Positions 1,938-31,565 of a stretch of DNA of 64,000 bases are shown one piece after another. The stretch's first letter is position 1. Each line of letters begins with the position of its first letter. Position numbers and translations under genes: made by a program. This DNA comes from Candidatus Delongbacteria bacterium (GTDB lineage Bacteria; CAIWAD01), in NCBI GenBank assembly GCA_963663545.1, contig OY760505.1, positions 873,185 to 937,184 on the forward strand, in the 5' to 3' direction. The notes below the pieces were generated by a model that saw only the letters and a list, made by a program, of their open reading frames with translations, had not been told where the DNA came from and did not search any database.

Positions 1938-1962
1938 CAAAGAGAAATGTCCCCTTGCGGGG
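1938..1962 (-). terminator. intrinsic-terminator-like hairpin (aaatgtcccc-ttgc-ggggacattt) downstream of rplT
   Basis: 10-bp GC-rich stem. On the minus strand it is followed by UUUCUCUUU. Located about 30 nt after the rplT stop. Confidence 0.45.
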
Positions 1963-1991
1963 ACATTTTGCGTATGCTGAGTCGCGCCGCT

Positions 1992-2336: not shown

Positions 2337-2348
2337 GGGACTACCTCC

Positions 2349-2543
2349 TTACTTGCCTAACATAGCCTTCACGCGCGGCTCGTCCACTTCGGCCACGATC
2401 AGGGACTTCCGCAGACCGCGCTTGCGATCAGGGCTTTTCTTGGTCAGAATATGGCTGCCGTAGGCCTGGTTGCGCTTGACGCGCCCGGTTCCGGTCAGCT
2501 TGAAGCGCTTTGCAGCAGCGCGCCGGGTTCTCATCTTGGGCAT
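2349..2543 (-). CDS. rpmI: 50S ribosomal protein L35
   Basis: 64 aa, [36 protein letters not shown]... is canonical L35. Confidence 0.95.
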
Positions 2544-2582
2544 GATATATCCTCCAGTTCTTCTTGTTGACGCTTCGCCAGA

Positions 2583-3137: not shown

Positions 3138-3193
3138 GATGTACTCCTTTAAGGATGACCAACTGACCTATCGCGGCCGCAAAGCGGGAGCCT

Positions 3194-5131
<1,938 letters not shown>

Positions 5132-5259
5132 GGTCCTTTCCTCTTCCTTTCCGGGGTGACGTGCGCCAGCAACGCCTTCCCCTATGGCAGCGAACAAGCC
5201 CCCGCGGGGGCCTGTTGCAGTTTCAATGCAAGCAGCAAGTGGTACTGGCTGCTTTCAAG

Positions 5260-5333
5260 TGGGCGGTACGGGATTCGAACCTGTGACCCCTAGCGTGTCG
5301 AGCTAGTGCTCTAACCAACTGAGCTAACCGCCC
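5260..5333 (-). tRNA. tRNA-Val (anticodon GAC), CCA not encoded
   Basis: Reverse complement reads GGGCGGTTAGCTCAGTTGGTTAGAGCACTAGCTCGACACGCTAGGGGTCACAGGTTCGAATCCCGTACCGCCCA. It has a 7-bp acceptor stem, a D-arm identical to E. coli tRNA-Val, an anticodon loop UCGACAC, and a T-loop TTCGAAT. Unusual features: C33, and an A51·C63 mismatch in the T-stem. Confidence 0.7.
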
Positions 5334-5486
5334 AAGAAAGACCGAGAAGATAGCGTGGGAGGAGCAGCTTGTCAAGTCCACTCCCCCTTAATCGGTATCG
5401 GTGCCCATTCTCCGCGCCGCCCTTTTCCTGTTGTAATATCGAGACACAGATCGCAGATTGGGCGTACACAGATCCGGAGAATAGCG

Positions 5487-7778: not shown

Positions 7779-7796
7779 GACACAAGGGTGGAATAG

Positions 7797-10436: not shown

Positions 10437-12773
10437 ATGAAAAAAAGATTTGTTGTCTCTTTGACCGCACTGCTGACACTCAGTGCTGTAGCACAAGCAA
10501 ATACCGGAACACTAGCCGACTATCTCTACCTGACAAATGCAGAAGTATCACCCGAGGGTGAAACAGCTACCTTCCTGCCAGAGAGCTTTCAGGCAGGACA
10601 CACGCATACAAACGGCCAATTCAGCGTAACTGCTGATGATCTGCCTAGGGCCGGAGGCCTTGTCAGCAGCCAGTCCACGGAGATCGCCAATCTGTCTCCG
10701 CAGCAATACCCGGAGGTCTTCCCGGGCGGTCTGGTACTGGGTGCCGAAGGAGTGAGCTTCGACATCTCCGGTTCCCTTCAGCGAATGCGCACCGCAGTCC
10801 AGCCGGAACACCATTTCTCAGGCTATGCAGTTCTGGAAGGGGAGACACTGGCCGTCAGCACCTATCTCAAGTTCAAAGATGGTGATTACTATGTGGCCCA
10901 ATACCTGGCGAATTGTGTCACAGCAGAACTGGATGCCAATGGCAACCCGACCGGCATCTATGACACACTGTATGTGACACCTGGTGATGCGTACTGGAGC
11001 CTGAGGCCGCTTCCTTCCGTCCCGAATGAAGAGGTGATTGTTGTAGAGGGCGTTTGTCGCCTGGAAGGCCGGGTGATGGGCAGGGTAACTGTGCTTTCAG
11101 CCGACACACTGTTCATCATGGATGATGTTTACACGGCGGATGCAAATGTTTGTGCCAATTACGGTACAGAAGACCTCTATGGCATAGTTCCCTGTGGTTC
11201 CAGCAACTGCATCGGCCTGGTGAGTGAGCGGGATGTCGTTATTGCCGCCACACCTGCCAACGGTGCCTGGAACGGCAACGGTGTTTCGGTCAACAGATGT
11301 ACAGCCGTGATGGGCCCCGCCTATACCGGTGGACCTGCATGCGGCGACATTACAGATGTCACGAGTTTCTCCCAGCGAAACAAGGATGTCATTATCACTG
11401 CGGCCATCATCGCCCTGGGTTGCAGCTTCGAAGCAGAGTTCTGGCACACCTCGGCCACCGCATCCCCCTTGCCGGAGAGCGAAGGCAGCGGCCAGGGTAC
11501 ACAGAATCCGGCGATCTGCGGTTGTGAGGGCTTCTACGATTCGCACATCGCCTATTGGCCCTGCTACGGTGATGAATCCGTCCAGGACAATCGCGGGTGC
11601 ATCTGGATGGATGGGTCGCTGATCCAGATGACAAAGGGATACACCTGGCGGCCTGCCGGTGGTCCCTGGGGCCCGTGTGACATCGGCTACTGGCACTTCT
11701 TCCTGCGCTACGACCGCAATCTTGGACACCGGGCGCCACCGATGTGGCCCGTCAGCGCTTCCACGTTGAACTACGAGCTGGTGCTTCCCGCCAACATTGC
11801 AGCGGTGGACACTCTCTCACCTTGGAAACTGCATACCTTCACCGGCAATGGGTCAGTTGGCGTAATACTGCAAACCGGTCTTCCAAACAACACACTGCCG
11901 GAGACATTCTCACTCTACACGATTAACCACTACGGTGACTTTCATCTCATCAACGACAATTGTGTGATACAGCCGGCACCTTTCGAAATCACCCTACCGG
12001 ATTCGAGCACCGCCGTCTACTTCCCCTTCCCCGGATCCGAATACTGGGAAGGCTGCTCACCCGGTTCAACCATCCACTTCGAATTGGGTCCCGGCGCGTG
12101 GAATGAAGACGGCTGCAACAGTCACTGGACTCTGCAGGCCGGGCCCGTGGCAGCAGAAGCGGAGACCCTGGGCGTTACTGAAGGTGTACAGCCCGTCTTC
12201 AGCGAGTTCGTTCAGCAGTGGAATTCCACTACAAGCCGCCTTCGTATCACAGAGCGCGCCGATCTTGTGCTACTGGCGCGATTGGTTGACGGCGAAGGAG
12301 AGATTCTGGCCGAGAGCGAGTTCAGCAACAATCTCTTCGAGCTGCCAGCGCTGGACGCTGCACTCTTCAGCGATGATGATGCCTACGAGATTCACGTGGA
12401 AGTCTACGCTCCCTGGTCTGATCAGACCTGGAGTTCCGCAGGCAGCATCAGCTGGTGGTACAACCCCGACACTGCTGTATCACCCAATGAACTGCCGCAG
12501 GAGCTCAGCCTGCGCGCCTTCCCCAATCCCTTCAATCCGCGTACTACAATTGAGTTGGCGCTGCCGGTGGCGGGCGAGGTGCGCGTGGAGCTTTTCGACC
12601 TTGCGGGCCGCAGCGTGCGCGTGATACGACGGGGCGAAATGGCTGCAGGTCTGTATCACATTCCTGTGGACGGACAGAACCTTGCCAGCGGTTTGTATCT
12701 GCTGCGCGTCGAGGCGCCGGATGCAGCCGGGCAGCGTCAGCAACAGGTGCAAAAGCTACTGCTGGTGAGGTAG
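10437..12773 (+). CDS. secreted T9SS-CTD protein; paralog 3 of 3
   Basis: 778 aa, signal peptide MKKRFVVSLTALLTLSAVAQANTG. Its C-terminal ~215 aa are near-identical to paralog 1. Confidence 0.85.
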   Translation: MKKRFVVSLTALLTLSAVAQANTGTLADYLYLTNAEVSPEGETATFLPESFQAGHTHTNGQFSVTADDLPRAGGLVSSQSTEIANLSPQQYPEVFPGGLVLGAEGVSFDISGSLQRMRTAVQPEHHFSGYAVLEGETLAVSTYLKFKDGDYYVAQYLANCVTAELDANGNPTGIYDTLYVTPGDAYWSLRPLPSVPNEEVIVVEGVCRLEGRVMGRVTVLSADTLFIMDDVYTADANVCANYGTEDLYGIVPCGSSNCIGLVSERDVVIAATPANGAWNGNGVSVNRCTAVMGPAYTGGPACGDITDVTSFSQRNKDVIITAAIIALGCSFEAEFWHTSATASPLPESEGSGQGTQNPAICGCEGFYDSHIAYWPCYGDESVQDNRGCIWMDGSLIQMTKGYTWRPAGGPWGPCDIGYWHFFLRYDRNLGHRAPPMWPVSASTLNYELVLPANIAAVDTLSPWKLHTFTGNGSVGVILQTGLPNNTLPETFSLYTINHYGDFHLINDNCVIQPAPFEITLPDSSTAVYFPFPGSEYWEGCSPGSTIHFELGPGAWNEDGCNSHWTLQAGPVAAEAETLGVTEGVQPVFSEFVQQWNSTTSRLRITERADLVLLARLVDGEGEILAESEFSNNLFELPALDAALFSDDDAYEIHVEVYAPWSDQTWSSAGSISWWYNPDTAVSPNELPQELSLRAFPNPFNPRTTIELALPVAGEVRVELFDLAGRSVRVIRRGEMAAGLYHIPVDGQNLASGLYLLRVEAPDAAGQRQQQVQKLLLVR
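12421..12773 (+). repeat. direct repeat copy 3 (3' end of paralog 3)
   Basis: Nucleotide-level near-identity with 7441-7778. The longer homology with paralog 1 begins near 12112 and 7117. Confidence 0.85.
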
Positions 12774-12859: not shown

Positions 12860-13420
12860 CTACTCGCCAAATGTATTCTTAAGCTTCTGATAGATCTCTC
12901 TTTGAACTGCTCTACTGCAGCGCCGGATACGAGCTAAAAGAGATTTTGCATCCTCAGACAAAGGCGTAGAGTTAGCTTTGCCTTGGTTGCATGCTGAGCA
13001 TACTACTTGAAGGTTCTCACGCTTATTGCTTCCACCCTGTTCAATTGGGACTCTATGATCAATCACTAGCCGCACATTGCGTGAAGGATCCAACGGGTCT
13101 TTGTCGTCTTTCCCATTGCCACAAATTTGACAGGTAAAGCCATTTCGCTCTAAAATCTCCGCTCTAAGAGAAGCCGAAACGTTTCGTGATACAGCAGGAA
13201 GTCGTTCTTTGGATATAAGTATATACTCGCCAGGTTTAAGATCAGCCCGATCTTTGTGAGTATATATTTGGTACCCCATTTCGTTTCGTAATTCACGTAC
13301 CCTACGTGCCCATTCGCTAACACCAGCGACTTCGCGGAGTTGTTCGGAATCGACCACCACACCAAGGTGTTCAAGGAAAAACTTCTCAAGTCTCCACTTC
13401 GCGCCTTGCTTGACTGACAT
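12860..13420 (-). CDS. HNH endonuclease, putative restriction component
   Basis: 186 aa. C-terminal HNH motif …CQICGNGKDDKDPLDPSRNVRLVIDHRVPIEQGGSNKRENLQVVCSACN…. Sits immediately downstream of a C5-MTase in a region of reduced GC. Confidence 0.65.
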   Translation of the reverse strand: MSVKQGAKWRLEKFFLEHLGVVVDSEQLREVAGVSEWARRVRELRNEMGYQIYTHKDRADLKPGEYILISKERLPAVSRNVSASLRAEILERNGFTCQICGNGKDDKDPLDPSRNVRLVIDHRVPIEQGGSNKRENLQVVCSACNQGKANSTPLSEDAKSLLARIRRCSRAVQREIYQKLKNTFGE

Positions 13421-13451
13421 CCATCCTCCGTGTACTCACTATCTTGTGACA

Positions 13452-14624
13452 TCATCTCCGACAAGATTCTAGCAAAGCTGTAATGCAATCTGCTACGTGT
13501 GCGGCCAGAACTGGAGGCACTGCATTCCCAATCTGCTTGGCTATCTCAATCTTTGTCCCTTTGAATTCAAACCAATCGGGAAAAGACTGAAATCTCGCTG
13601 CCTCACGCATTGTAATTGGTCTATGCTCACTTGGATGCAGATATCTACCCTTCTCTGGCTTGTAGAACTCGGTTCGGATTGTGACAGCTGGACGATCCCA
13701 CCACAAACGACCAAACAGGTCCGTTCCGCCACTCTTCTTTCGGATCCAGCAGCTAGGAGTCAAGTGTGGAGCCAGTTGCTGGAGATCAAACCGATTCATA
13801 CCCTCATCAGGAATCGCCTGATACCGTGCCAGACTCTTCGCGGTTGGATTTCTACCAAAGTGAAGGTTAAGCGGTGCTGGCTCATCTCTGACTTCTGTCC
13901 CAACTGGCTTGAGTGGTAGATCACGAATCGCATCTCGCACAGTTCGCCACGTCTCTGGATGATCTACATACTGCGACTGAAACAAAGTACTACTGGTTTG
14001 GAAGCCGTTTCTTGCATTGTAGAACCTACGCATGGGTGGGAAGAACTCGCGCGGGTCACCAACGCGGCTGCCCAAAATGAAAGCACGTGATCGTGTCTGT
14101 GGAACACCATAGTCTGCTGCACAGAGCTTCTCAGAATGTGTCACAAAGCCTATCTGTTCCGCATAACCGACAATTTCCCGATGCTCTTCGGAAGCAAGAA
14201 TTTGGGGTACATTTTCTATCAGAAATACTCGAGCTCCAGATCGCTCCACGATTTCCATAAAGGGGCGCCATAGCGTCTTTCGCGGATCATTTTCACGATT
14301 CTTGTTTAGTAGCGAGAAGCCCTGACAGGGTGGTCCACCAATCACAACATCAGCTCTCGGGATCTCCACCCCAGAGGCAAGAATCTCGAGGATATCCCCA
14401 GCAACACAATGAGTACCGAAATTGGCTGAATAAGTCTCGGCGGCTAACTCGCTACTATCATTAGCCCATACTGATTTAAAGTTGTGGCCAAGTCTTGGAT
14501 CAAAGCCAAGAGTTAATCCTCCTGCTCCAGCAAACAAATCAATAAGTGTATATGGTGTTTTTCGCCCTGTGGTTGGCTGACCTTGTAGCCGCCTTTGGGT
14601 AATCTCTTGAGAAGTAGTCTTCAT
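13452..14624 (-). CDS. DNA (cytosine-5)-methyltransferase
   Basis: Motif I (LIDLFAGAGGLTLGF), motif IV (GGPPCQGFS) and ENV motif (FLIENVP). Start set at MKTTSQ (ATG 14624, GGAG upstream). Local GC is lower than the flanks. Confidence 0.85.
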   Translation of the reverse strand: MKTTSQEITQRRLQGQPTTGRKTPYTLIDLFAGAGGLTLGFDPRLGHNFKSVWANDSSELAAETYSANFGTHCVAGDILEILASGVEIPRADVVIGGPPCQGFSLLNKNRENDPRKTLWRPFMEIVERSGARVFLIENVPQILASEEHREIVGYAEQIGFVTHSEKLCAADYGVPQTRSRAFILGSRVGDPREFFPPMRRFYNARNGFQTSSTLFQSQYVDHPETWRTVRDAIRDLPLKPVGTEVRDEPAPLNLHFGRNPTAKSLARYQAIPDEGMNRFDLQQLAPHLTPSCWIRKKSGGTDLFGRLWWDRPAVTIRTEFYKPEKGRYLHPSEHRPITMREAARFQSFPDWFEFKGTKIEIAKQIGNAVPPVLAAHVADCITALLESCRR

Positions 14625-15592
14625 TGCTCCGCTCATACTTTGACGAAATAATAGCGTGCCCCTGAGACATCCTAGGAAAGCTGACATACCGTCGGATAAT
14701 TCAAGCGCCTATGAGATTGGAGTCCCAGCCAAGCGGAACAGCCGGATGGTCAGTTTAACAAATCGGGATCAATCTCTTCCGAAGACTACTGCTGGATCTC
14801 GTGTCCTAGCTAGGCGTCCAGTCACACGCAAACAAGCTGGTGTGTCACACGGGGAATCAGTCGCTCCTTTGGCTGATTTCGCTACTAGTAGTATTCGCAA
14901 CCTTCGTATGACAACCGATTGAAGACCTCGCGTACACGCGCCTTCCTTTGGTGGGAAATTGTGGAATGGGTGGCTTCTTTCATGCTCTTCCAGAAGTGTT
15001 GGTGCAAGCTGGGGACCTCGCTCTTTGATGTTTCACAGTGTGCTCACCTAGTCTGACCCAGGATATAGGGGTGCTCATCATTTCTGGCCGAGTTACTCAC
15101 GTTATTGTGCTTGTGATCCGCCCCAACACCTGCGCCTCAAGGCCATTCGCCAAAGGCGGAACACACATAGACAGAAGGCTCGCAATCTCATCCATGGCGA
15201 TGTTGCAGTCCTTGGGGGCGAGACTTCGTCTCAACCACTTTACGCACGACGTTGTCGAGGGACAAGTAGTCGGGATGGATTTCTTCGGTATCGAAATTGG
15301 CAAGTCACTTCGATTCACTTTCATCATTGGTCAAGAATCACTTCCGCCCATCTCCCAAACAATCGCCCCCGAAAATCATCATCTGGCTTCGGGGGTTCTC
15401 TTTCCCTTCGCGCCCATCGCCCGCTAAATCTAACACCGCTCTTCTTCAGTGCCTCTGTATTCTATAGCACCATCAACGACTTACAAGCGCTTCTGTTGAC
15501 TCCCACGGCCTGGTCCAACTTGCGAATTCAGTCATTTTGTTCTATCCTATCAATCATTCCTGTTGAAATCATTTCGAAGCAAAGAATCCAAA

Positions 15593-16150
15593 ATGCCCAC
15601 CCAAAAATCCATGAATGAGCCGGCACCGCTCGCGGACGAGGTTTTCTTTGAGACCTGCGGCATTCGCGTACTCACCGCGCTACGGCGCATCATTCGCGCT
15701 GTGGACCTGCACTCGCGCAAGCTAAACGGCGATTACCAGATCACGGCACCGCAGATGATCTGCCTCTACAGCCTGGCGCGTCACGGCGAGATGACCCAAA
15801 TCGCGTTGGCCAAGCAGGTCAGCCTGAGCGCCAGCACGGTCAACGGCATCATCGACCGGCTGGAAAAACGCGCCTACGTCCAGCGCAGACGTTGCGACCA
15901 GGATCGTCGCCGCGTTTACGTCAGCATTAGTGAAAGCGGCCGCGAGTTGACTCAGTCTGCGCCCGCGCTGCTGCAGGACAAACTGGCCGCCGCACTGCGC
16001 CGTCTGCCGGAGCTGGAGCAATTCGCCATTGCCACCTCCCTGGAACGCGTGGTGGAGCTGATGAGCGCGTCCGAACTGGACGCCTCGCCCAACCTGCTGC
16101 CGAACGCCGCCATTGAAGAAGCTGGCGCGGCAAACCAAAAGGAACTGTAA
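15593..16150 (+). CDS. MarR-family transcriptional regulator
   Basis: Winged-helix MarR signature …[61 protein letters not shown]…. Exact start uncertain: the table ORF begins at a TTG at 15563. Confidence 0.7.
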
Positions 16151-16151
16151 C

Positions 16152-17456
16152 ATGACCCTGTCTCCCCGTCAGGAGCGGATTTACCAAGAGCTGGAGCATT
16201 CCGAGAACCACAGCAAATGGCGCGACTGGAAATGGCAGCTGCGCAATGAAATCCGTGACCTGGATACCGCAGAGCGTCTATTGGGTGTGACCTTCGATCC
16301 TGAGTTGCGCGAGCAATTCTCACGCACCATCGAAGCCTTCCCCTTTGCGGTGACGCCCTACTACCTGTCGCTGATCAATACCGACGACTACCTGAATGAC
16401 CCGGTCTTTCGCCAGTCCTTCCCTTCGCCGAAAGAGCTGGTGGTGGAGCCTACGGACATGGCGGACCCGCTGCACGAGGATCGCGACAGCCCGGTGCCCG
16501 GCCTGACCCACCGCTACCCTGACCGCGTGCTGCTGCTGGTAAGCAACATGTGTTCGATGTACTGTCGCCATTGCACGCGCAAGCGCCAAGTGGGCGACAA
16601 GGATTCGATTCCGGGCAAGGAGCAGATTCTGCAGGGCATCGAGTACATCCGTAACACGCCGCAGATTCGCGATGTGCTGCTCTCGGGTGGTGATCCGCTG
16701 ATGCTCAGCGACAATCAGATCGACTGGATTCTGACGGAACTGCGCACGATTCCGCACGTCGAAGTGATACGTATCGGTTCCCGCATGCCGGTGGTGCTGC
16801 CCTATCGTATCACGGACGAATTGGTGCAGGTGCTACGCAAGCATCAGCCCGTGTGGTTCAACACGCACTTCAATCATCCGCGCGAACTGACGCAATCTTC
16901 GCGCAAGGCGCTGGCCAAGCTGGCCGACGGCGGCATTCCCTTGGGCAACCAGTCGGTGCTGCTGGCGGGCGTCAACGACTGCCCGCGCATCATGCGCTCG
17001 CTGGTGCAAAAGTTGGTCTACAACCGCGTGCGCCCCTATTACCTCTATCAGTGCGACCAGTCGCGCGGCCTCTCGCACTTCCGCACGCCGGTGGGCAAGG
17101 GCATTGAGATCCTGGAGAGCCTGATCGGCCACACCAGCGGCTTCTGCGTGCCCACCTACGTCATCGACGCGCCGGGCGGCGGCGGTAAAATTCCCGTGAT
17201 GCCCAACTACCTGATCTCCTGGTCCACCAACAAAGTTGTGTTACGCAACTACGAAGGCGTCATTTGCACCTACAAGGAGCCCGACTCCTACGAGCCCACC
17301 TTCTGTGACCGCCACTGTGATCGCTGCGAGCTGCAGCTGGGCCTCGAGGACGCCGACGAGCAGAAATCCCTGGGCATCGAAAAGCTGCTGGCCGACTACG
17401 ACAAGACCATCTCACTAGTACCGCAGGACAACGAACGCTACAGCCGCAGGGAGTAA
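16152..17456 (+). CDS. ablA: lysine 2,3-aminomutase (radical SAM, PLP)
   Basis: Strong similarity along the whole length to KamA/AblA. It has …[35 protein letters not shown]… with the CxxxCxxC motif, and …[17 protein letters not shown]…. ATG 16152 follows AAGGAA and lies 1 nt after the marR stop. Confidence 0.9.
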
Positions 17457-22317: not shown

Positions 22318-23334
22318 ATGTTGTTTACATCCCCCCGCCGCGCCACGAGTGCCTTCCTGATGATTGTCACCTCGCTGATTCTGCTGCTAAGTGGCTGCGA
22401 CAAGCCCAAGCTGCTGACTCACTATGAGGTCGTCCGCGAGACCCCCCTGTACAGTCATATCACGCTTTCGATGTACTTCAACTCAGCCGCGCCCGGGGAT
22501 ACGCTGACCGTGCTGAAAACCTTCGACAACTGCATCTCGACCAAAGTACACGGACGCAAGCGCTACGTAAAACTGGAAGACCTGCGCCTGATTGAGGTGG
22601 CTCCCGAGGAGCGCATCATCTCAAATACTTCGCCCCTGCCGCCAGTGGCACAGCAGTTCATGATGAAGTACGCCAATTTCTGGAACTGGCGCTTCTGGGC
22701 CATCATTGCCGGACTGGCGGTGACGCTCTTCCTCATGTTCAGCATAGGCATGGGCACGCAGATCTCGTACAGCGTGGATCACGAGACCGAAGCGCCGGGA
22801 CTGGAGCTCTTCCCCGTCTTCTCCTTCGGCATTGGCGTGCTGATTGGCGTCTGGCATTTCCTGGCACCGGAGACAACGGAGGGCGCCCTCTACCATCTGG
22901 ACTTCCTGCGCGTTTTCGCGGACGAAGATCCTTCGCGCACGGCCTGGTTCCTCTTCGCGATGGGCGGCCTTTTTGTGCTGTTCAATCTCTGGTTGCTGAT
23001 CCGCATGCTGGTGAAGTACTTCAGCTATTCCTGGGTCCTCTATCCTTTCTATACACTGATGGGTGTCACGGCACTACTCAGCGCCGTCTACATGGCCACC
23101 GCCTCGATCGTTGTGCTGATCGCGGGCACGGTGGTCTACTTCGGCTTCAGCATGCTGGGGGGCGCCATGGGTGCGGTGGGAAACATCGGCTCTGGCGGAT
23201 CCGCTTCCAGTTATGACCAGGAGCGGGAGATCACCAGACGCGACCAAGAGGCCCTCAAGCGCCGCCAGCTCAACCAGGCGGAGTGGCACAAGGTGTACAA
23301 GGGCAAGAATATCGATCCCAACGTGTTCAAGTGA
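22318..23334 (+). CDS. membrane lipoprotein, hypothetical
   Basis: Lipobox LLLSGC near the N-terminus. Several TM helices. No recognisable domain. Confidence 0.55.
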   Translation: MLFTSPRRATSAFLMIVTSLILLLSGCDKPKLLTHYEVVRETPLYSHITLSMYFNSAAPGDTLTVLKTFDNCISTKVHGRKRYVKLEDLRLIEVAPEERIISNTSPLPPVAQQFMMKYANFWNWRFWAIIAGLAVTLFLMFSIGMGTQISYSVDHETEAPGLELFPVFSFGIGVLIGVWHFLAPETTEGALYHLDFLRVFADEDPSRTAWFLFAMGGLFVLFNLWLLIRMLVKYFSYSWVLYPFYTLMGVTALLSAVYMATASIVVLIAGTVVYFGFSMLGGAMGAVGNIGSGGSASSYDQEREITRRDQEALKRRQLNQAEWHKVYKGKNIDPNVFK

Positions 23335-23345: not shown

Positions 23346-24995
23346 CTACATCCCAGGCAACCAGAGATCGCGGCGTCTCGATCGACGCCCACATGGACGG
23401 CTTCGGCCTCCTCGTGCCGAGGGTGAAACGCTCGCCTTTGTTCTCTCCTGCGTACGCCCTCCGCTCTTCCTGGCAACCGTTTTTCCTCGGCTATCGTTGT
23501 ACTCCCGTTGAAACTGCCGTGCTTGTGTCACCATTTCAGCCCCCGGTTCCGATGGAAGCTGAGGGCGCGTACTTGGTTCATGCAATACCTCATCGCTATC
23601 AAGCGCGCTGACCAGGAATCGCATTTGCCCCCGGCGGCAGCAGGTGTAGGCCAGCATCTGATCGCGCTCGTCACAACGCAATTGCGTGAGACGTCGGGCG
23701 CGCTGCTGAAATCCCGGTGTCCGCTTCACTCCCGTGACACACCACCGGCGGCCCCATTTCCTTACCATGGCAGGCTCTTCCACCGCAAGCAGAGCCAGCG
23801 CCTTCTCGACTTGTCCTTGCGGCAGCTGCATGAAGCGTGCGATTTCTTCGTCGCTGAGTCCCTGCGGATGCCAACTCAGGATCTGCAGAATCGCCGCAAT
23901 CTCAGGCTCGCTGGGAAAGGCCGTTCGAATGAAGAAATCCAAAATGCCCTTGTCGCCCTTGCCGTAGAGCAAAATGCCGTAGGCCGCCTCCAGCGCCCGA
24001 CCGGCCCGTCCAACCTGCTGATAGTAGGCGACCACGGATGCCGGCATCTGATAGTGTATCACAAAGGCAATGTCCGGCTTATCGAAGCCCATACCTAGCG
24101 CAGTAGTAGCCACCAGCACTTTGAGGCGGTTCCTCATTAGTTGGTCTTCAATCTGCTCGCGCTCCGGAGCTCCCGAATAGTAGGCTTTGGCCGTTATGCC
24201 GCAATGCTGCAACCATGCGGCCACTTGCTGTGCGTCCCTGACGGTCAGCGTGTAGACGATGCCGGAGCCAGGCAGCCGGGGAAGCTGCTCCGCCAGCCAG
24301 GCCATGCGCTCACTGCGTTTGGCCAGCTCGATGTTTTGTAGCACAAGACTAGGACGCGCCAGCTCACCGCGCTGCACCTGCAGATCCGGCCCCAGGATCT
24401 GCTCAAGGTCCCGCATCACGCGTGCGTTGGCCGTGGCCGTTGTTGCCAGCAGACGCAGACTGGCAGGTAGCTGTGGTATCACGCGCTCGATCAGCCGATA
24501 GTAGGGCCGGAAGTCGTGGCCCCAGTCGGAAATGCAATGCGCCTCATCTACCACCAGCATGGCGATCTCGCGCAGGATGGGCGACAGCACTGTATCACAG
24601 AAACCCTCGTTGGCCAGCCGCTCCGGTGAGATGAGCAGCAAGTCCGCCTGCCCTTCGCATAGAAGATGCTGGTTATGCACCCACTCCTCCCTGTTGTCCG
24701 AGTGAATGCTTACCGCTCGCAGCCCCATGCGCTCAGCCGCTTGCAACTGATTACGCATCAGCGAAAGCAGCGGCGAGATCAGAATACTTGGCCCCGCACC
24801 GCCCTCTCGCAACAGACGACAGGCAATGAAGTAGACATAGCTCTTGCCCCAGCCGGTACGTTGTATCACCAGGAGACGCCCGCGCCCCTCCACGATGTGC
24901 CGGATCGCCTCTTCCTGTCCCTCACGGAACTCTGCCTTCGCCTGTGCGGTCCCTTCCCGCAACAGCTCGCGCGCTCGCTTCGCATCGTAGTTCAT
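23346..24995 (-). CDS. recQ: RecQ-family ATP-dependent DNA helicase
   Basis: Start set at MNYDAK (ATG 24995, GGAGGGAG upstream). Helicase motifs present: …TGWGKSYVYF…, DEAHCISDWGHDFRPYY. Basic low-complexity C-terminal tail. Confidence 0.85.
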   Translation of the reverse strand: MNYDAKRARELLREGTAQAKAEFREGQEEAIRHIVEGRGRLLVIQRTGWGKSYVYFIACRLLREGGAGPSILISPLLSLMRNQLQAAERMGLRAVSIHSDNREEWVHNQHLLCEGQADLLLISPERLANEGFCDTVLSPILREIAMLVVDEAHCISDWGHDFRPYYRLIERVIPQLPASLRLLATTATANARVMRDLEQILGPDLQVQRGELARPSLVLQNIELAKRSERMAWLAEQLPRLPGSGIVYTLTVRDAQQVAAWLQHCGITAKAYYSGAPEREQIEDQLMRNRLKVLVATTALGMGFDKPDIAFVIHYQMPASVVAYYQQVGRAGRALEAAYGILLYGKGDKGILDFFIRTAFPSEPEIAAILQILSWHPQGLSDEEIARFMQLPQGQVEKALALLAVEEPAMVRKWGRRWCVTGVKRTPGFQQRARRLTQLRCDERDQMLAYTCCRRGQMRFLVSALDSDEVLHEPSTRPQLPSEPGAEMVTQARQFQREYNDSRGKTVARKSGGRTQERTKASVSPSARGGRSRPCGRRSRRRDLWLPGM

Positions 24996-25246
24996 GCTCC
25001 CTCCTTCCCGCTTACCGATGAGCACGCCGGCAACGTGTATCACGGCTCCCTGCGTTCATCCTTGTTTGATGTGCTTTGTGATACAGACTGCGCGGGTTGC
25101 GGTTCCGGGTTTCGAGCGGATCTGGGCATCACTGCATTGCAGTGTCCAGACGCTTGGACACATTAGATCAGGCGATGCGGATAGGCGTAGGACGCACAAG
25201 CTGACCCGAAACCGCGAAGTCATCGGAATGTTGTCACACACACCGC

Positions 25247-25816
25247 CTATTGAAAGCGGAAAAGCAGTGGCAGCACGAAGAAAACGAACGCGGCCCATAT
25301 GACGTAAACCGGAAGATAGCCGGCAGCAGCCTGATGAAGGCTCTGACGGGTGCCCGTTCGCAAATGGACTAGCTGACCACGCAGGATGACGGCAAGATGT
25401 CCAAGGATCACCAGGTTCGCGCCCAGGACCACCACACGGTTTGGCGAAAAGCCGAAGGATGCTAGGCGAAAGACGATGGACGCCAGCGCCTGTAGATCAA
25501 TCAGCATGGTGATGGCAAGCAGGCCAAGCGTGATCCACTCGCCAAAACTCCGCTGCTGATTCGTGCCTTGGTTGGCAATGCTCAGCAGGCTGATCAGTAA
25601 GACAACCAGCAGCAGACCGTTCATGAGAATCAGGAAGTCGCGATCGACGAAGGGATTGCGCCCAAGCTCTAGCGCCACCGTCAGGAAAGCCGTTGACATG
25701 ATTAGAAAGAGCGGGGCGAACACTCGCGCCAGTACCGCGGCGATCTTTGTACGACGTGCGAAGATGCGTTTGAAGAGATATAGGAATGCTAAAAAGTCCT
25801 GTCCGAGACACGGCAC
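25247..25816 (-). CDS. membrane protein, hypothetical
   Basis: 189 aa, about 5 TM helices, no recognisable motif. Confidence 0.5.
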   Translation of the reverse strand: MPCLGQDFLAFLYLFKRIFARRTKIAAVLARVFAPLFLIMSTAFLTVALELGRNPFVDRDFLILMNGLLLVVLLISLLSIANQGTNQQRSFGEWITLGLLAITMLIDLQALASIVFRLASFGFSPNRVVVLGANLVILGHLAVILRGQLVHLRTGTRQSLHQAAAGYLPVYVIWAAFVFFVLPLLFRFQ

Positions 25817-26051
25817 AAAGACCTATGAAAATCTGCAAACTAGAATGACTGAATATCCTGATTAACCTGTTTGCGGATTATATCCCCATCATATCTATCC
25901 ACGACACTTCTATTAACAGTATCTCGCAATCTAACATCTATCATAACACCTTGATTCATCTTGTCACTTCGGCTAATTTATCGAAAACATTCTAACATTC
26001 TATTTTCTTCTGACAGTCCTGCACTTACAACATTTTTGACTATTTCAGATG

Positions 26052-27626
26052 CTAAATATCACAACCACCTCCTGATAATGCTTTTTCCATTTCTGCTAAT
26101 ATTTCTTTCTCTCGCATTTTCGCTTGTTGTATACTTACTAAAATTGATTTAACTAATCGCAGAACTACAATTCCATTTGATTGCACTGAATGCTTAGCTA
26201 TAGTCTCCAAACACCCATTATCATATGTATAGCGTAACTTTGAAATTGATTTTAATTTATAGAATTTACTCCTTGAATCACTTGTGAACGCATAAAGCAT
26301 GTCTACTATTCCTTGTACTAATGGATCTTTAAATTTGTATTTATATGCCATAGTATTGCAATCCAAGTCACCAAGTAGCGACATTATTACCGGACACCTA
26401 CTCATTGCTGTACCAACATTTATTGCTACCGATCTCCAAAACCACTGATTTGATTCTATAAGTCCATTCTTCTCGTAAAAACGTACATTTTCCTCTAATT
26501 CACCTATCGTTACCAACGGATCAAATGCAATATATCCGCAATCAAAACTCATACTAATTTCTTTTAATATTTTTATTGCTACTTCTGCTTGTTCAGCAGT
26601 ATATCCCCTGTTATATCTTTGCAATTGTGAATCTACTCCACTCTCAATTCCAATGTATAGCCTCTTTAATCCTACTGACCTATAGTCATTTAATAAACCT
26701 TTAATTGTTTCTACGTGATTGAAATCACCATTTCCTACTATGAATCCAGGTCTAACAAATATTCGAAACTGAACTTCACGTTTAGATCTCCTTCTTGCTT
26801 CATGAATAAATCTACGTATCTTATTTGCACGATCAAGATTTTGACTACAATATTTGCCAAAAAAATCATCATCACAAAATTCTATAACATCAACCCCTAA
26901 ATCACATATGAGATGGTTAATATCCCTTTCAATTCGGTCAATAGAAAAGCTCTCCCATCCGCGATTTCTAAAGCTATACCTCGTGCAAAACGAACACTTT
27001 CCCCATGAACATCCACGCGAGAGCTGCGCTTGAACAACCTTAATTCCATCAACCTCTTTTGGTGTATACTTTGGCAAATATGGCAGTTTTTGCAATTTCG
27101 GAGTATTTACCGGTAGCTTACTTATACGACCACATCCATTGTCTTCTGAAAAGCTAACAACACCATCAATTTTCCTTATTGTATGGAGATTTTGCACACT
27201 CTTATTCAAACATCCCACAATCAGCTCTATTACACGTTCAGCTTCACCTCCTACACAAAACACTTTTCCAATATCAAGACAGTTTAACGAATTAATTCGA
27301 TTTAAAATCTCTTGTGGTAAATACGTTGGCAGCTGCCCCCCTAATAGCAAAATACCCGTATCTAACAAATTGAGTGTTTTTACAATATTCAAACACAGCT
27401 CGATTGTATTAGTAGAGACACTAATGCCAATAATATCATACTCGACATCAGAAGCATAGTTTTCCACAAAGCAATCAATAGTATCACATTCAATGCGATC
27501 AATAAGAATCGAGTCACCGTAGACACCCAGCAAATGTCCCTCTAACGCATCAAGCGACAACATATTCCAAAATGAATAATGATCAATTGACCTCAAACCT
27601 ACGAACAAAATCCTTATAAAAGGCAT
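26052..27626 (-). CDS. class-B radical SAM enzyme with N-terminal B12-binding domain
   Basis: 524 aa. Rossmann-like N-terminal domain (…DIIGISVSTNT…ILLLGGQ…) is followed by a radical SAM core with SRGCSWGKCSFC, i.e. CxxxxCxxC as in B12-rSAMs. Strongly AT-rich codon usage, unlike the host genes. Confidence 0.8.
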   Translation of the reverse strand: MPFIRILFVGLRSIDHYSFWNMLSLDALEGHLLGVYGDSILIDRIECDTIDCFVENYASDVEYDIIGISVSTNTIELCLNIVKTLNLLDTGILLLGGQLPTYLPQEILNRINSLNCLDIGKVFCVGGEAERVIELIVGCLNKSVQNLHTIRKIDGVVSFSEDNGCGRISKLPVNTPKLQKLPYLPKYTPKEVDGIKVVQAQLSRGCSWGKCSFCTRYSFRNRGWESFSIDRIERDINHLICDLGVDVIEFCDDDFFGKYCSQNLDRANKIRRFIHEARRRSKREVQFRIFVRPGFIVGNGDFNHVETIKGLLNDYRSVGLKRLYIGIESGVDSQLQRYNRGYTAEQAEVAIKILKEISMSFDCGYIAFDPLVTIGELEENVRFYEKNGLIESNQWFWRSVAINVGTAMSRCPVIMSLLGDLDCNTMAYKYKFKDPLVQGIVDMLYAFTSDSRSKFYKLKSISKLRYTYDNGCLETIAKHSVQSNGIVVLRLVKSILVSIQQAKMREKEILAEMEKALSGGGCDI

Positions 27627-27642
27627 TATTTAACTCACTAAT

Positions 27643-28878
27643 TTATTGTTCAATCATTGCTTGTATTTCTTCCGATACTTTATCACAAGAGTATTCGTAT
27701 TCACTAGCTTTATCGCCGTTAGATTTTCGCATCTTCACCTTAAATACTGTGCCGTCGTTACTAAAATTTGGTAGCACGCCACCCATGCGATACGGGACAG
27801 TAAACATAACTTCCACATTGTTACCATCTTGCGACCTTTGAAAATTCAGCAAATCATGAACAACTCTATTATCGTTAACCAGTATTTGCAGCATTAGAGC
27901 TCCTGCAGCCCTGCACCCAGAGAACAAAAATACATATTTGCTATCGTTTTCCTTTGCCCATGGGTTTTTACAGCATGAGATTAACGCATAATCAGTATGT
28001 GTCATGTTTTCCTGCGACTCATTTGAAACAGTAGGACAACACATAATACCATTCGCAATTATACAGGCCATATTTGTTTCACCACATACACCTGTTCTAG
28101 AACCGCTAGTACATTCAGAATTCCCAGGACACTTAATGAAACTTGCGAACAAACCTGGTTGATCGCCCTGTTTTAGCATTTTATCAATAAATCTCTTTGT
28201 TACTGAGTTTGTTTTACTACTGCCAAGAAGTATTAGATTACGGTCGCCTAATTTTTCTTCTTCTGATCCGACTTCACAACTACATTTTATTCTTACTCTC
28301 CTATCACCAAGAACCGATTGAACAACACCATACAGCTTCATTGCCAATAAGCTTTCTTGTAATATTAATGGTATACTAGAAGATGTTTTTGCTAAATCAC
28401 CACGTCTATGTTTTAAATCATTACTAACAACATCACTCCAATAACTATCTTTTTCTGAGTCAATTTTATGTGAGAATATCACATCAACTCTTGCTCCTGA
28501 CGCATAAATCTCATCAAGATGAAGAAATTGTGCCAGAGGCTTATATCCAGCAGTATCGGCCATATGAGTTTCGAGTAACTCAACTATCCTATAACAATTT
28601 TTGTCAATTCTTGAACATTTGGATACATTAGATAACAGTTCACCTATAGCACGCTTGGATTTTGCAATAGCATTATTAAAACGCAAAAACATCACTACAA
28701 CACCTATAACTATATAAATAGTGATTATAATAATCATTAACCACAGAAGTTGGCTATTCACCATCCCGAGTTTAAAATGCGACGCCAAAAGTCCAGATAC
28801 GGCAGTAACCAACGGCGAATAGCGCCAAACAATTTTCCATATCCTCTTCCAGATGGTGTTTTTCCTGTCGTTTGGCAT
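27643..28878 (-). CDS. N-terminally membrane-anchored protein of unknown function, Cys-rich soluble domain
   Basis: 411 aa. N-terminal hydrophobic helix (LWLMIIIITIYIVIGVVVMFL) then about 330 aa of soluble sequence with no motif I can assign. Lies 16 nt upstream of the B12-rSAM gene on the same strand, with the same AT-rich composition. Confidence 0.7.
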   Translation of the reverse strand: MPNDRKNTIWKRIWKIVWRYSPLVTAVSGLLASHFKLGMVNSQLLWLMIIIITIYIVIGVVVMFLRFNNAIAKSKRAIGELLSNVSKCSRIDKNCYRIVELLETHMADTAGYKPLAQFLHLDEIYASGARVDVIFSHKIDSEKDSYWSDVVSNDLKHRRGDLAKTSSSIPLILQESLLAMKLYGVVQSVLGDRRVRIKCSCEVGSEEEKLGDRNLILLGSSKTNSVTKRFIDKMLKQGDQPGLFASFIKCPGNSECTSGSRTGVCGETNMACIIANGIMCCPTVSNESQENMTHTDYALISCCKNPWAKENDSKYVFLFSGCRAAGALMLQILVNDNRVVHDLLNFQRSQDGNNVEVMFTVPYRMGGVLPNFSNDGTVFKVKMRKSNGDKASEYEYSCDKVSEEIQAMIEQ

Positions 28879-29099
28879 ACTTCACACCTGCTGACATTTA
28901 TTCTTAACTACCTTCTGTCTGTTCCGGAGCCAAGCTACTATGTAATGCTGTTTTGAGCCAGCACTTTCGAGTAGATATCAGACAAGCTCTTCTCTCGATA
29001 CTGTAGGAACTCTTCATCTGAGACATCTCAGACCACACAGGGTCGAAATTGAGTTCTAGATCATACACACCAGCTTTGATCGCTAATCCTGATTACCTA

Positions 29100-29700
29100 G
29101 TATCCTCCGATTACCGCAGGCTGCCCAGCGGCCTTTTCGTGGAGCTGGCAGCAGCTCGTAGCAATCTGCATAACAGCCCCTGCTGGTTGAACCTGCAATT
29201 GATGAGAAACAGAAGTAGGCCGAAGTAGCGAGGCAGGTAGCGAGCTTCTGACTTGTGGTGCACACCAACGAGGCTGGTCTTCAGATTGCCCAGGATCGGG
29301 TTCGCCCAGCGAAAGACAATTTCCAGCAAACGCTTTCTACCCTTGACCGCATTCGGAGCGTAATCCTGAGCAGTTTCCTTGATCGCCGGAAAGCCCCCGA
29401 GGGCATCAGAAAACACAAAGGCCTGAGCCGCGAAACGCTGGCTTGCTCAAGCTGAAACAGGGATTCGCGGAAGTTGGGAAGGACGCTATGACAAGATGAC
29501 GCACGCCATTGTTCTCATTACGATCCACAGCAAACACAAAGGGTGTCTTGTACGGGAATCCGCGTCCGGTCTTCTACTCAGGACGTTTTCCTCCATGTAC
29601 GCATCGTCTATTTCAATCGTTTTCATCAAAATGCGACCCACCTCCTGACTGACAACTACGTCCATCAGCTTGTGCATCATCAGCCAGGCGGTGCAGTATG
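29100..29700 (-). pseudogene. decayed IS4/IS5-like DDE transposase fragment
   Basis: Broken minus-strand frames give …LLEIVFRWANPILGNLKTSLVGVHHKSEARYLPRYFGLLLFLI…. This resembles the conserved C-terminal segment of IS4-family transposases (…IELFFKWIKQ…). No intact ORF. Borders the AT-rich island. Confidence 0.4.
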
Positions 29701-29963
29701 TGTCCTATTGTGCAGCCACAACACAGATAGACCAAGTCTCAAGGCCAACGGCATTTGTGATAAATGATCGGGACCAATCTTTAGTAAGCACATAGCAATA
29801 GTACACGCGGATCTGTACCGAAAGTCCTATCTAAGCACAGCCATTCAATTATATAAATATGCCGTCCAGCAAGCGGAACCCGATCCCCGGTGAGTTGATC
29901 GACGCGTAGAAGTCTACTCATCCACAGGATCGACAGCGATAGCAATACCCTGATCCAGAAAGG

Positions 29964-30392
29964 TCAAAGACTAAGCAAGACGATGCCGCCCACGGTCAGC
30001 AGCATGCCGAGCGCCGTTTTCAGAGTCAAGGTCTCGCCGCCCAGCATCAAGCCCATCAAGGCACCGAAGAGTGGAGAAGTAAACGCAATGGGCATCACGC
30101 GATTCAGCGGAGCGCCCTTCAGCGCGGCGTAAAAGCAGAGCATGCCGCCAGCACCGGCCACCACGCCACCGCCGATGACCATCATCCACAAGGCGCGCGG
30201 TGGAGCGGAGAGCAACAACTTCCACTGGGGCGCACTCACCAAGCCCAGGATCAGCAGTGCCACGGCGGTACGAATGCTAATGCCCAGCTGAGGCGACAGA
30301 TGCCCCATGTGCAGGCCCTTTTTCTCGAAGTAGCCGCCAATGCCCCAGGCGGCGGCCGTGAACAGTGCCAGAAGCTGTGGATTGAACTTCAT
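29964..30392 (-). CDS. EamA/DMT-family small membrane transporter
   Basis: 142 aa, 4-5 TM helices, Gly-rich EamA-like pattern. Confidence 0.65.
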   Translation of the reverse strand: MKFNPQLLALFTAAAWGIGGYFEKKGLHMGHLSPQLGISIRTAVALLILGLVSAPQWKLLLSAPPRALWMMVIGGGVVAGAGGMLCFYAALKGAPLNRVMPIAFTSPLFGALMGLMLGGETLTLKTALGMLLTVGGIVLLSL

Positions 30393-30832
30393 CGGGTCAG
30401 CCCTTCTTCGCTCAGAATGCGACTCAGGATATCGGCGGCTCCCAGAACAATGCCCGGGCAGAGCTTGTGCTGCTCCGCCAGCACTTCTTCGCGGCTGCGG
30501 TTCGTTTGGGGAACCAGATGATCGCAGCGGTGCTCGCCATACTGGCTGCGAAACTCCTCGATGAAGTGCTTGGCGGTATTGCGGCAGCGCTGCTTCACGT
30601 CAAGATCACCGGCGCTGACGCGCCCTTGCGCCAGGCCTATGACCAGAAGCGCACCACCGATGGCACCGCACATCTCACCCGTTCCCGCCATGCCGCCACT
30701 CAGAGGATCGGCCAAACGCGAGGCCAGAGTGGGCTCCAGGCCGAACTCGTCTGCCCACGCCATCAGAATGGCCTGACTGCAGGACCACCCCTCTTCGTAC
30801 AACTGTTTCGCTTTCAGTGCGCGGTTGATCAT
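30389..30832 (-). CDS. C_GCAxxG_C_C family protein
   Basis: Start set at MINRALKAKQLYEEGWSCSQAIL (ATG 30832, GAGGA upstream). Conserved C…GEMCGAIGGAL…C…C pattern of the C_GCAxxG_C_C family. Confidence 0.7.
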   Translation of the reverse strand: MINRALKAKQLYEEGWSCSQAILMAWADEFGLEPTLASRLADPLSGGMAGTGEMCGAIGGALLVIGLAQGRVSAGDLDVKQRCRNTAKHFIEEFRSQYGEHRCDHLVPQTNRSREEVLAEQHKLCPGIVLGAADILSRILSEEGLTR

Positions 30833-30833
30833 C

Positions 30834-31565
30834 TCATCCTCTTGTACCGAAGTCGTCCAGAATGCGACGGCAAAGTCCCACCTCCTCCGCGTCACACATG
30901 CGATCGGCACCATAAGCACCCGCATCATGTGTGACACTCGCTCCCACATGCACGGCATGCAGGCCGGAAATGCGCAACAAGGGTTCCAGATTGCCATGTC
31001 TCACGCTGCCAGCGGCAATCAGCTCCAACCCATCGCCCACAGATTCCATCCACTCATGCAGCGTGTGACGGCCGCGATAGGCGGTTTCGGCCATCCCACT
31101 GCTAAGCAGGCGTCGGCAACCAACACGCATCAGCTCCTGCAGAGCTGCTTTCGGATTCTTCAGCTGATCGAAAGCGCGATGAAAAGTAACCGGCAGGGGT
31201 GCCGCCGCCTGTATCACACACTCCAAAGAAGGCAGATCCAACTCGCCTGAAGGAAGAAGCGCGCCAAAGACAAAGCCATTGGCTCCTGCTTTTCGCAGGG
31301 CATTCAAATCCACCATCAGCTGCCCCAGCTCTTCGCGATGGATTGTGAAGGAGCCACCGCGCGGCCTGAGCATGCAAACCAGGTCCGCCGTTGTTGTATC
31401 ACGAAGCGTCTGCACAAAGCCGGGTGTAGGAGTCAGGCCGCCCTCGGAAAGGGCCGAACAGAGCTCAAGTCTGTCGGCACCCGCTCCCAGGGCGGCCTGT
31501 GCTGATGTCAGATTATCAACGCAGACCTCCAGGAGGATCTGCGTCTGCGTATCACGCTGTATCAC
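30834..31565 (-). CDS. cutC: copper homeostasis protein CutC
   Basis: …ILLEVCVDNLTSAQAALGAGADRLELCSALSEGGLTPT… aligns with the E. coli CutC N-terminus. Apparent GTG start. Confidence 0.85.
   Translation of the reverse strand: MIQRDTQTQILLEVCVDNLTSAQAALGAGADRLELCSALSEGGLTPTPGFVQTLRDTTTADLVCMLRPRGGSFTIHREELGQLMVDLNALRKAGANGFVFGALLPSGELDLPSLECVIQAAAPLPVTFHRAFDQLKNPKAALQELMRVGCRRLLSSGMAETAYRGRHTLHEWMESVGDGLELIAAGSVRHGNLEPLLRISGLHAVHVGASVTHDAGAYGADRMCDAEEVGLCRRILDDFGTRG

Follow-up and report, generated by a model that had tools for sequence, protein, structure and literature searches.

We report a rare, conserved and mobile gene cassette in which a constant gene, here called gene A, is followed directly by a single, variable gene for a tailoring enzyme. 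The cassette was analyzed in a 64,000-nucleotide (nt) stretch of Candidatus Delongbacteria DNA (GenBank assembly GCA_963663545.1, contig OY760505.1, positions 873,185 to 937,184 of the forward strand), referred to as the window and numbered from its first letter. In the window, gene A (27643..28878, minus strand, 411 amino acids [aa]) precedes gene B (26052..27626, minus strand, 524 aa), and the two share an AT-rich island of foreign origin. Gene B appears to encode a cobalamin-type (class B) radical S-adenosylmethionine (SAM) enzyme of the CX4CX2C subgroup. Elsewhere, the place of gene B is taken either by another cobalamin (B12) radical SAM enzyme or by a pyridoxal phosphate (PLP) enzyme of the DegT_DnrJ_EryC1 family. 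Tentatively, we read the whole as a mobile, membrane-tethered module that would tailor a nucleotide or nucleotide-sugar, with an envelope glycan as its probable output. We regard this reading as plausible, though short of probable.

A constant gene A with interchangeable enzyme partners

Eight distinct cassettes had a resolved gene context, namely those of the window and of the loci L001, L011, L014, L010, L013, L015 and L033. A gene A homologue stands directly upstream of an enzyme gene in 8/8 of them, with spacers of 8 to 91 nt in the relatives. In L001, from a Bacteroidetes metagenome-assembled genome (MAG), the radical SAM homologue is directly preceded by a gene whose product shares 29% identity with that of gene A (E 9e-31). 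A B12 radical SAM enzyme follows the gene A type in the window, L001, L011 (Deltaproteobacteria MAG GCA_016931625.1) and L014 (a metagenomic lineage); a DegT_DnrJ_EryC1 PLP enzyme follows it in L010, L013, L015 and L033. An earlier note on this DNA could not map the pairing with a membrane-anchored partner onto any described system and asked whether the two genes always occur together. The pairing is real and is conserved in other lineages. In the resolved contexts, a gene A homologue is always found beside an enzyme gene, but that enzyme is a radical SAM protein in four cassettes and a DegT protein in the other four. No description of the pairing, or of the alternation between radical SAM and PLP enzymes, was found in the libraries and literature searched.

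The DegT partners of the four lineages keep the catalytic lysine and score best against DesI (272 to 280 bits), PseC and ArnB, which act on nucleoside diphosphate (NDP)-sugars. These scores lie below the equivalog cutoffs, so the partners are not orthologues of these enzymes. The window cassette holds no enzyme of the DesI, PseC or ArnB type, and the comparison is relevant to it as evidence on the class of substrate only. A partner of the reductase-requiring E1/ColD type was considered and rejected, since the DegT partners keep the catalytic lysine. In L033, a NUDIX hydrolase of the ADP-compound/NDP-sugar type follows the DegT gene. On either side of this L033 cassette lie pieces of a phosphohexomutase (PGM_PMM) gene, of 346 aa and 81 aa (positions 3-1043 and 4137-4382 of that locus), and the cassette looks as if it had been inserted into or beside the PGM_PMM gene.

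In a distance tree, the gene A clades mostly track the type of partner. The window copy is the exception: its branch is long and falls next to two DegT-paired relatives. In the alignment, the segment around residues 160-176 of gene A differs between the radical-SAM-paired and the DegT-paired groups.

The cassette is mobile. Its flanks are different in every locus, and every cassette lies 5 to 22 GC points below its own flanks. In L011, direct repeats of about 170 nt with 81 to 84% identity (positions 7586-7754 and 10902-11077 of that locus) bracket the cassette and may be an insertion signature; no third copy is present in the 17 kb examined, and neither repeat matches Rfam. No copy of the cassette was found in plasmid or phage collections, the plasmids carrying only distant radical SAM proteins of 25 to 30% identity. 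Homologues were likewise absent from phage records, BFVD and PHROGs. Toxin-antitoxin genes (MNT/HepT, PIN/MazE and HicB), and not recognized defence systems, prevail among the neighbors in other loci, and L011 also has an N6/N4 methylase as a neighbor.

Gene A as founding member of a protein family

Judged by its sequence, the window's gene A founds an undescribed family of proteins. The earlier note could assign the protein to no family, and the searches agree: Pfam, NCBIfam, PADLOC and PHROGs all lack a match, as do the PDB sequences. A profile search of the PDB gave no informative match, a Foldseek search of BFVD was uninformative, and no member of the family matched Pfam at E<=10. The family came to light only when 1.84 billion cluster representatives were scanned exhaustively with phmmer, which recovered ten true relatives (P0040-P0049), together with two marginal long proteins. 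In a word-indexed search of 5.8 billion proteins, the single sequence returned itself only and the family profile returned itself and P0049. The same profile found nothing in genome, metagenome and viral collections, and a re-ordered profile found one metagenome locus that repeats the L013 arrangement.

In gene A, three parts are predicted: a hairpin that anchors it in the membrane, a long helix spanning residues 42-107 and, over residues ~111-411, a domain of flavodoxin-like fold. The putative hairpin (residues 20-66; 28681..28821, minus strand) comprises, by hydropathy, a weak hydrophobic helix followed by a strong transmembrane (TM) helix. A single N-terminal TM helix had been proposed in the earlier note. 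One strong helix is indeed present, but the weak second helix had been missed, and since most relatives have two N-terminal hydrophobic helices, we read the anchor of gene A as a hairpin. The 25 residues after the last helix carry a charge of +6/-1 in gene A and of +7/-1 or +7/-2 in four relatives. By the positive-inside rule, these basic residues point to a cytoplasmic soluble domain and thus to an N-in/C-in hairpin.

AlphaFold2 models of gene A have a predicted local distance difference test (pLDDT) score of 69 and a predicted TM-score (pTM) of 0.62 at full length and of 0.75 for the domain alone. They predict the long helix and then an alpha/beta domain of flavodoxin-like fold (residues 111-411; 27646..28548, minus strand), in which no enzyme family stands out. 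The best fold matches of the models are domains of carbohydrate-handling proteins, namely BcsB, an S-layer cell-wall anchor, GH115 and GH67. Specifically, the modeled domain resembles one flavodoxin-like domain of BcsB, at 10% identity and with no Pfam or PDB sequence match. In contrast to gene A, with its N-terminal anchor and predicted cytoplasmic location, BcsB is periplasmic, is anchored at its C terminus and alternates carbohydrate-binding domains (CBD) with flavodoxin-like domains (FD) in the order CBD-FD-CBD-FD.

The invariant or near-invariant residues of the family are H137 in FSH(K/R), E175, C199-x-C201, G219-S220-x3-N224, D296-Y297 and G321-C322, the last within the motif (A/S)GC(K/R)AAG (G321-C322-(K/R)-A-A-G). 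We take this invariant His/Cys/Asp-Tyr set not to be a described feature of BcsB. When alignment and model are combined, the conserved motifs all sit at the C-terminal ends of beta strands, which are the ligand-binding place in Rossmann-like and flavodoxin-like folds. In the C322 segment, YVFLFSGCRAAGA (27898..27936, minus strand), a strand, the invariant G-C and a helix follow each other, and in the model this strand-turn-helix resembles a nucleophile elbow. We infer from this position, rather than from a family match, that C322 may be a catalytic or ligand-binding cysteine. The earlier note also described a Cys-rich soluble domain, which does not hold for the family: most of the Cys-rich stretch falls in a lineage-specific insertion (residues 242-285; 28024..28155, minus strand) that is absent from all relatives and is modeled at pLDDT <50. 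The conserved cysteines, C199, C201 and C322, lie outside it.

Gene B as a divergent relative of OxsB

Gene B matches Pfam Radical_SAM (PF04055) at 45.5 bits (cutoff 29.5, E 1.2e-11) over residues 202-360 (26547..27023, minus strand). Within gene B, SRGCSWGKCSFC is present, and the cluster motif C206-x4-C211-x2-C214 lies at 26985-27011. These three cysteines are invariant in 14/14 family members, with the spacing CX4CX2C and not CX3CX2C, and the family alignment (A3) has >90 invariant columns. Upstream of the core, residues ~41-150 (27177..27506, minus strand) form a putative cobalamin-binding Rossmann domain, which aligns to OxsB from residue 157. The B12-binding model PF02310 scores 27.1 bits on residues 54-110, below its cutoff of 32.1, and homologues of gene B carry precomputed PF02310 matches. 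The class B assignment, already made in the earlier note, is probable, and the N-terminal cobalamin-type domain is a candidate. With this putative Rossmann domain ahead of the radical SAM core, gene B would follow the domain order of the class B enzymes BchE, ArsL, HpnR, PhpK and those of the Mmp10 type.

The curated cutoffs for such enzymes are missed by a wide distance. All 18 NCBIfam models that match gene B do so far below cutoff, among them BchE (60.7 vs 481 bits), ArsL (57.6 vs 450 bits), HpnR, PhpK, KedN5 and the methyl-coenzyme M reductase (MCR) glutamine C-methyltransferase. That both genes might prove to have characterized orthologues had been allowed for in the earlier note; none emerged, and the best curated models overall reach 23 to 61 bits against cutoffs of 250 to 750.

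OxsB (5ul2) is the only PDB sequence match of gene B, whose residues 41-388 align to OxsB across both the cobalamin and the radical SAM domain (E 4.7e-19). The CX4CX2C spacing occurs in gene B, in about 12 homologues (33 to 38% identity) and in a few more distant ones, in contrast to the CX3CX2C of the remaining B12 radical SAM proteins recovered. OxsB has CX4CX2C as well, whereas TsrM and TokK do not (PMC9204698). Gene B and OxsB also share the FC(P/T)R continuation of the motif and an acidic GGE-equivalent, and a crude distance tree places OxsB beside the CX4CX2C clade. However, OxsB is a four-domain protein of ~744 aa with an extra N-terminal domain I that gene B (524 aa) lacks. Because this domain is missing and the core identity is only ~25-30%, gene B is, as far as sequence can tell, a relative of OxsB and not its orthologue.

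Radical SAM homologues also occur without gene A. Two of the 35-37% identity class lie in polysaccharide-type surroundings. One (L007) is found between a glycosyltransferase and a fusion of the NDP-sugar dehydratase/reductase type in a Pel-like exopolysaccharide locus, and the other (L004) among GT2, Mur-ligase-like and methyltransferase genes with a second B12 radical SAM gene. In an Altiarchaeales genome (L020), the upstream partner has a HIT nucleotide-hydrolase domain (22.1 bits vs a cutoff of 21.5), and in Accumulibacter (L022) the radical SAM homologue has an N-terminal extension. The upstream partners in L004, L022 and L020 were considered as possible relatives of gene A and were rejected, as hhalign found them unrelated to the gene A profile.

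Two further loci show other settings of such enzymes. In Omnitrophica WOR_2 GWF2_43_52 (MHGF01000016.1; L018, positions 1-9102), the radical SAM homologue is a domain of a giant fusion protein of >3034 aa, which has N-terminal HEAT repeats and is encoded by one uninterrupted frame across all 9.1 kb. A conjugative plasmid of Sphingobium yanoikuyae (NZ_CP139981.1; L036, positions 5003-8164) carries a distant B12-type radical SAM gene (25% identity, CX3CX2C) that belongs to a GntR-regulated operon and is flanked there by genes for a SurE 5'/3'-nucleotidase and a NUDIX hydrolase. Going by its gene content, this is another uncharacterized nucleotide-linked radical SAM cassette.

The cassette lies in imported DNA

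The two-gene stretch is horizontally acquired, as its contrast in GC and in GC at third codon positions (GC3), the missing host 8-mer and the remnant of an insertion sequence (IS) together indicate. In 300-nt windows, GC is 0.32-0.40 from ~25850 to ~29000, against 0.52-0.57 before, and recovers afterward. The AT-rich core (25850-29050) has a mean GC of 0.36, compared with ~0.58 in the surrounding window. Hence, the abrupt drop near 25850 to about one-third and the recovery near 29000 described in the earlier note are real, but its figure of >60% GC for the flanks was too high (about 0.58). In 1-kb windows, the three island bins have GC values of 0.335, 0.378 and 0.371 (z = -7.7 to -9.3), while the other 59 bins have a mean of 0.583 (sd 0.027). 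GC3 is 0.27-0.30 in genes A and B and 0.59-0.77 in the neighboring genes.

Only one other GC dip occurs in the window, a milder one of 0.46-0.49 at 12.9-14.7 kb. It holds genes for an HNH endonuclease (12860-13420, minus strand) and a C5 cytosine DNA methylase (13452-14687, minus strand), probably a type II restriction-modification pair. Since the second dip thus consists of a methylase and HNH pair, low GC in the window marks imported DNA and not a habit of the genome. Within the window, therefore, the possibility raised in the earlier note that such dips are common in this organism is not borne out.

Counted over both strands, the 64-kb window has 92 copies of YGTATCAC, a non-palindromic 8-mer, which is a roughly 40-fold excess over the 2.2 copies expected. 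The longest gap without this motif, 25078-31210, contains the island (P ~0.014 under a Poisson spacing model), so the absence of this host motif, pointed out in the earlier note, is confirmed. Other gaps without the motif span 1337-5890 and 13186-16764. The content of two gaps, 25078-31210 and 13186-16764, was examined, and both overlap compositionally foreign DNA. As to its nature, YGTATCAC could be an uptake sequence, an architecture-imparting sequence or the core of a repeat.

The island as a whole (25850..29960) comprises the AT-rich core, the upstream spacer and the IS remnant; the region of the IS remnant at 29100-29960 has a GC of 0.52. Within the core lie exactly two intact, co-directional open reading frames (ORFs), genes A and B, as the earlier note had it. 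The 16-nt spacer between them (27627..27642, minus strand) has a GTGAG Shine-Dalgarno-like element and thus implies a tight operon junction. The upstream spacer (28879..29110, minus strand, ~230 nt) is the presumed promoter region and contains a GTG ORF. Genes of host-like composition bound the island on both sides, one for a 189-aa membrane protein (25247..25816, minus strand) and one for a small EamA protein (29964..30392, minus strand). The island ends show neither direct nor inverted repeats and no tRNA or att-like features, and no Rfam element, such as a cobalamin riboswitch, was found either.

Beside the operon lies a decayed transposase (29111..29680, minus strand), in a single frame with two in-frame stops. 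It represents the C-terminal part of a DDE domain, covering positions 82-150 of 153 of the DDE_Tnp_IS1595 profile (PF12762, E 1.1e-5, 26.0 bits, cutoff 27). The decay reported in the earlier note is therefore confirmed, but the element is IS1595/ISXO2-like and not IS4-like. Neither the N-terminal part (Zn-ribbon) nor terminal inverted repeats were found, so that the remnant does not qualify as an intact IS.

One gene away from the cassette, a RecQ-family helicase (23346..25043, minus strand) matches the PADLOC PsyrT model at 637.6 bits, compared with 265 bits for TIGR recQ. The adjacent ORFs tested gave no match to a PsyrA-like partner; the adjoining 338-aa ORF (22318-23334, plus strand) has no match in any library. 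The window also encodes a C_GCAxxG_C_C protein (30389-30997, minus strand) with a secondary, sub-cutoff match to the DVU_1555 model, a hint of a host resembling sulfate reducers, and has a small ORF (15563-16150, plus strand) with a weak CARF/Csa3-like match. The other neighbors in the window are mostly housekeeping genes (aldo-keto reductase, YitT, EamA and CutC).

Proposed function and alternatives

We propose that the substrate of gene B would be a nucleotide or NDP-sugar, whose sugar ring it would either C-methylate or rearrange in its skeleton in a 5'-deoxyadenosyl-radical/cobalamin step. For this, it would depend on gene A as an obligate partner; held on the cytoplasmic side of the membrane, gene A may use its Cys/His/Asp pocket to bind the nucleotide-linked intermediate, to hold it or to pass it on. 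The most probable output would be an altered envelope glycan or glycolipid, so that the module would serve niche adaptation or surface variation. As the target, we propose the sugar ring of such a nucleotide-activated compound because half of the cassettes pair gene A with an NDP-sugar aminotransferase type and because the gene-A-free homologues lie in polysaccharide or NDP-sugar loci. The HIT and NUDIX nucleotide hydrolases among the neighbors and the action of OxsB on deoxyribose favor the same choice. The substrates of OxsB are dAMP, dADP and dATP, whose deoxyribose it rearranges, and for this the adjacent OxsA must be physically present (PMC7074753, PMC13331322).

Several points weigh against this proposal. 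No substrate, product or phenotype has been assigned to any member of either family, gene A belongs to no recognizable catalytic family, and the domain that its models of moderate confidence (pLDDT 69) match in fold is non-enzymatic and 10% identical. Similar distances separate gene B from OxsB (72 bits), BchE (61) and ArsL (58), and the analogy with OxsB rests mainly on CX4CX2C and a crude distance tree. The cassette has no glycosyltransferase, flippase or sugar-activating gene, so an envelope output would require host pathways. Besides, it is not evident why an NDP-sugar aminotransferase, as a soluble enzyme, should need a partner in the membrane. Several toxin-antitoxin neighbors are equally compatible with a role in defence, and with only 8 distinct cassettes of resolved context the statistics are thin.

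Such a role in defence would take the form of an anti-phage or abortive infection system. In it, gene A would be a membrane effector, with a hairpin of two TM helices, an oligomerizing helix and a ligand-sensing, flavodoxin-like domain. It would be activated or kept in check by a small molecule that the adjacent enzyme either makes or consumes. We consider this rather unlikely. By analogy, the layout resembles immune pairs of a TM effector and an enzyme. Like CBASS, Pycsar and Hailong, the cassette has two genes, is mobile and patchy and combines a small-molecule enzyme with a protein of N-terminal TM and C-terminal globular parts. Rarity, a patchy spread across phyla, the AT shift, mobility and a swappable enzyme around a constant membrane protein would fit defence. 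So would the PsyrT-like helicase (637 bits), the restriction-modification pair 11 kb off, the toxin-antitoxin genes and the L011 N6/N4 methylase. Gene A matches no PADLOC model, however, and gene B none significantly: its sole PADLOC match is a weak one to PDC-M51A (22.9 bits, E 8e-6), a model that the L011 radical SAM protein also matches weakly (29.2 bits). Furthermore, there is no homology to the components of CBASS, Pycsar or Hailong, and the enzymes are radical SAM or PLP proteins and not nucleotidyltransferases or cyclases. No link to phages was found in the phage-derived collections named above, the window neighborhood is mostly housekeeping, and gene A has no recognized sensor-type domain. 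B12 and iron-sulfur (Fe-S) radical chemistry would also be slow and costly for making a signal. We know of no described precedent for immune signaling or toxin control through radical SAM/B12 chemistry. Extended to the whole gene A family, the idea would make these cassettes a new class of two-gene conflict systems, in which a membrane effector with a flavodoxin-like ligand pocket is controlled by a modified nucleotide or nucleotide-sugar from an interchangeable radical SAM or PLP enzyme. In this general form, we find it distinctly unlikely.

Alternatively, the cassette might make a nucleoside analogue or nucleotide antimetabolite, as oxsAB and alsAB do. Gene B would then rearrange or methylate a (deoxy)nucleotide, and gene A would replace OxsA, for example in that it processes the product at the membrane, detoxifies it or delivers it. 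OxsB is the closest characterized relative of gene B, with CX4CX2C common to both. In OxsB/OxsA and AlsB/AlsA, as in our cassette, a radical SAM gene stands beside one dedicated partner in a compact unit; clusters of two genes are enough to make oxetanocin and albucidin, and OxsB requires its partner close by. Related radical SAM genes are also found beside nucleotide hydrolases (HIT in L020, SurE and NUDIX in the Sphingobium plasmid). Directly downstream of the L001 cassette (positions 5389-5970 of that locus) lies a gene for a pentapeptide-repeat protein, Qnr/MfpA-like with a weak HalA match, and the oxetanocin cluster has resistance genes too. Nevertheless, we hold this explanation to be quite improbable. 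Gene B lacks the N-terminal domain of OxsB (524 vs 744 aa, alignment starting at OxsB residue 157), and the core identity is low, as given above. The partners of OxsB and AlsB are an HD phosphohydrolase (OxsA) and a second radical SAM protein (AlsA), and gene A has neither an HD nor a radical SAM signature and is unrelated to both. In addition, the partner gene comes first in the gene A-gene B operon, unlike in those systems. The closest gene-A-free homologues sit in polysaccharide loci, not in nucleoside clusters, and the Sphingobium enzyme differs by its CX3CX2C motif and an identity of just 25%.

Modification of a protein or peptide, with gene A or a small unannotated peptide as the substrate of gene B in the manner of ribosomally synthesized and post-translationally modified peptides (RiPPs) or of Mmp10, appears very improbable. 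The order of substrate first and enzyme second is typical of RiPP operons, and gene A has invariant cysteines. B12 radical SAM enzymes do methylate peptides and proteins, and gene B has weak NCBIfam matches to ApyD, MCR glutamine C-methyltransferase and RiPP C-methyltransferases. Yet the RiPP-type models score 16 to 24 bits against cutoffs of 280 to 750, and gene A is a folded membrane protein of 350-430 aa, not a leader-core peptide. Half of the cassettes have a PLP aminotransferase of the NDP-sugar type in place of the radical SAM enzyme, which is at odds with a peptide as the substrate. The earlier note had suggested a search for precursor-like ORFs around the operon. A 54-codon GTG ORF does lie in the upstream spacer (28904..29068), but it is not conserved in other cassettes. 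Comparison of the flanks of the four cassettes with a radical SAM gene found no shared ORF of >=15 codons (best match between loci E 0.028 over 16 residues), and the RiPP idea is therefore not supported. Finally, gene A could serve as a membrane-bound redox partner, its three cysteines and one histidine (C199, C201, C322 and H137, invariant or nearly so) binding a metal or an Fe-S cluster and passing electrons to the radical SAM cluster or cobalamin; although the flavodoxin-like fold fits and class B radical SAM enzymes need a reductant, this is very improbable, as the alternative partners are Lys-retaining PLP aminotransferases that need no electrons and gene A has no flavodoxin FMN-binding signature or Pfam match at E<=10.

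Significance

Few enzyme classes are as poorly assigned as the cobalamin-dependent radical SAM enzymes, and the CX4CX2C subgroup has two characterized members only, OxsB and AlsB, which make antiviral or herbicidal nucleosides. As judged from the comparisons above, gene B adds a divergent new member to a known enzyme class, and gene A represents a protein family absent from every library consulted. The cassette thereby exposes a second, unexplored CX4CX2C clade, tied to a dedicated partner that is absent from databases. We do not rate it as categorically new, because its function remains inferential: in kind, it is a mobile tailoring cassette that couples a radical SAM enzyme to a dedicated partner encoded next to it. 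The pairing of gene A with NDP-sugar aminotransferases constrains the class of substrate. Moreover, the module is only ~2.8 kb long and evidently moves between phyla, which makes it testable by heterologous expression. The possible pay-offs are new radical chemistry on sugars linked to nucleotides, a novel fold for a membrane-anchored enzyme or sensor and a new mechanism of surface variation or defence. Even if the function should turn out to be mundane, a blank family would still gain an annotation.

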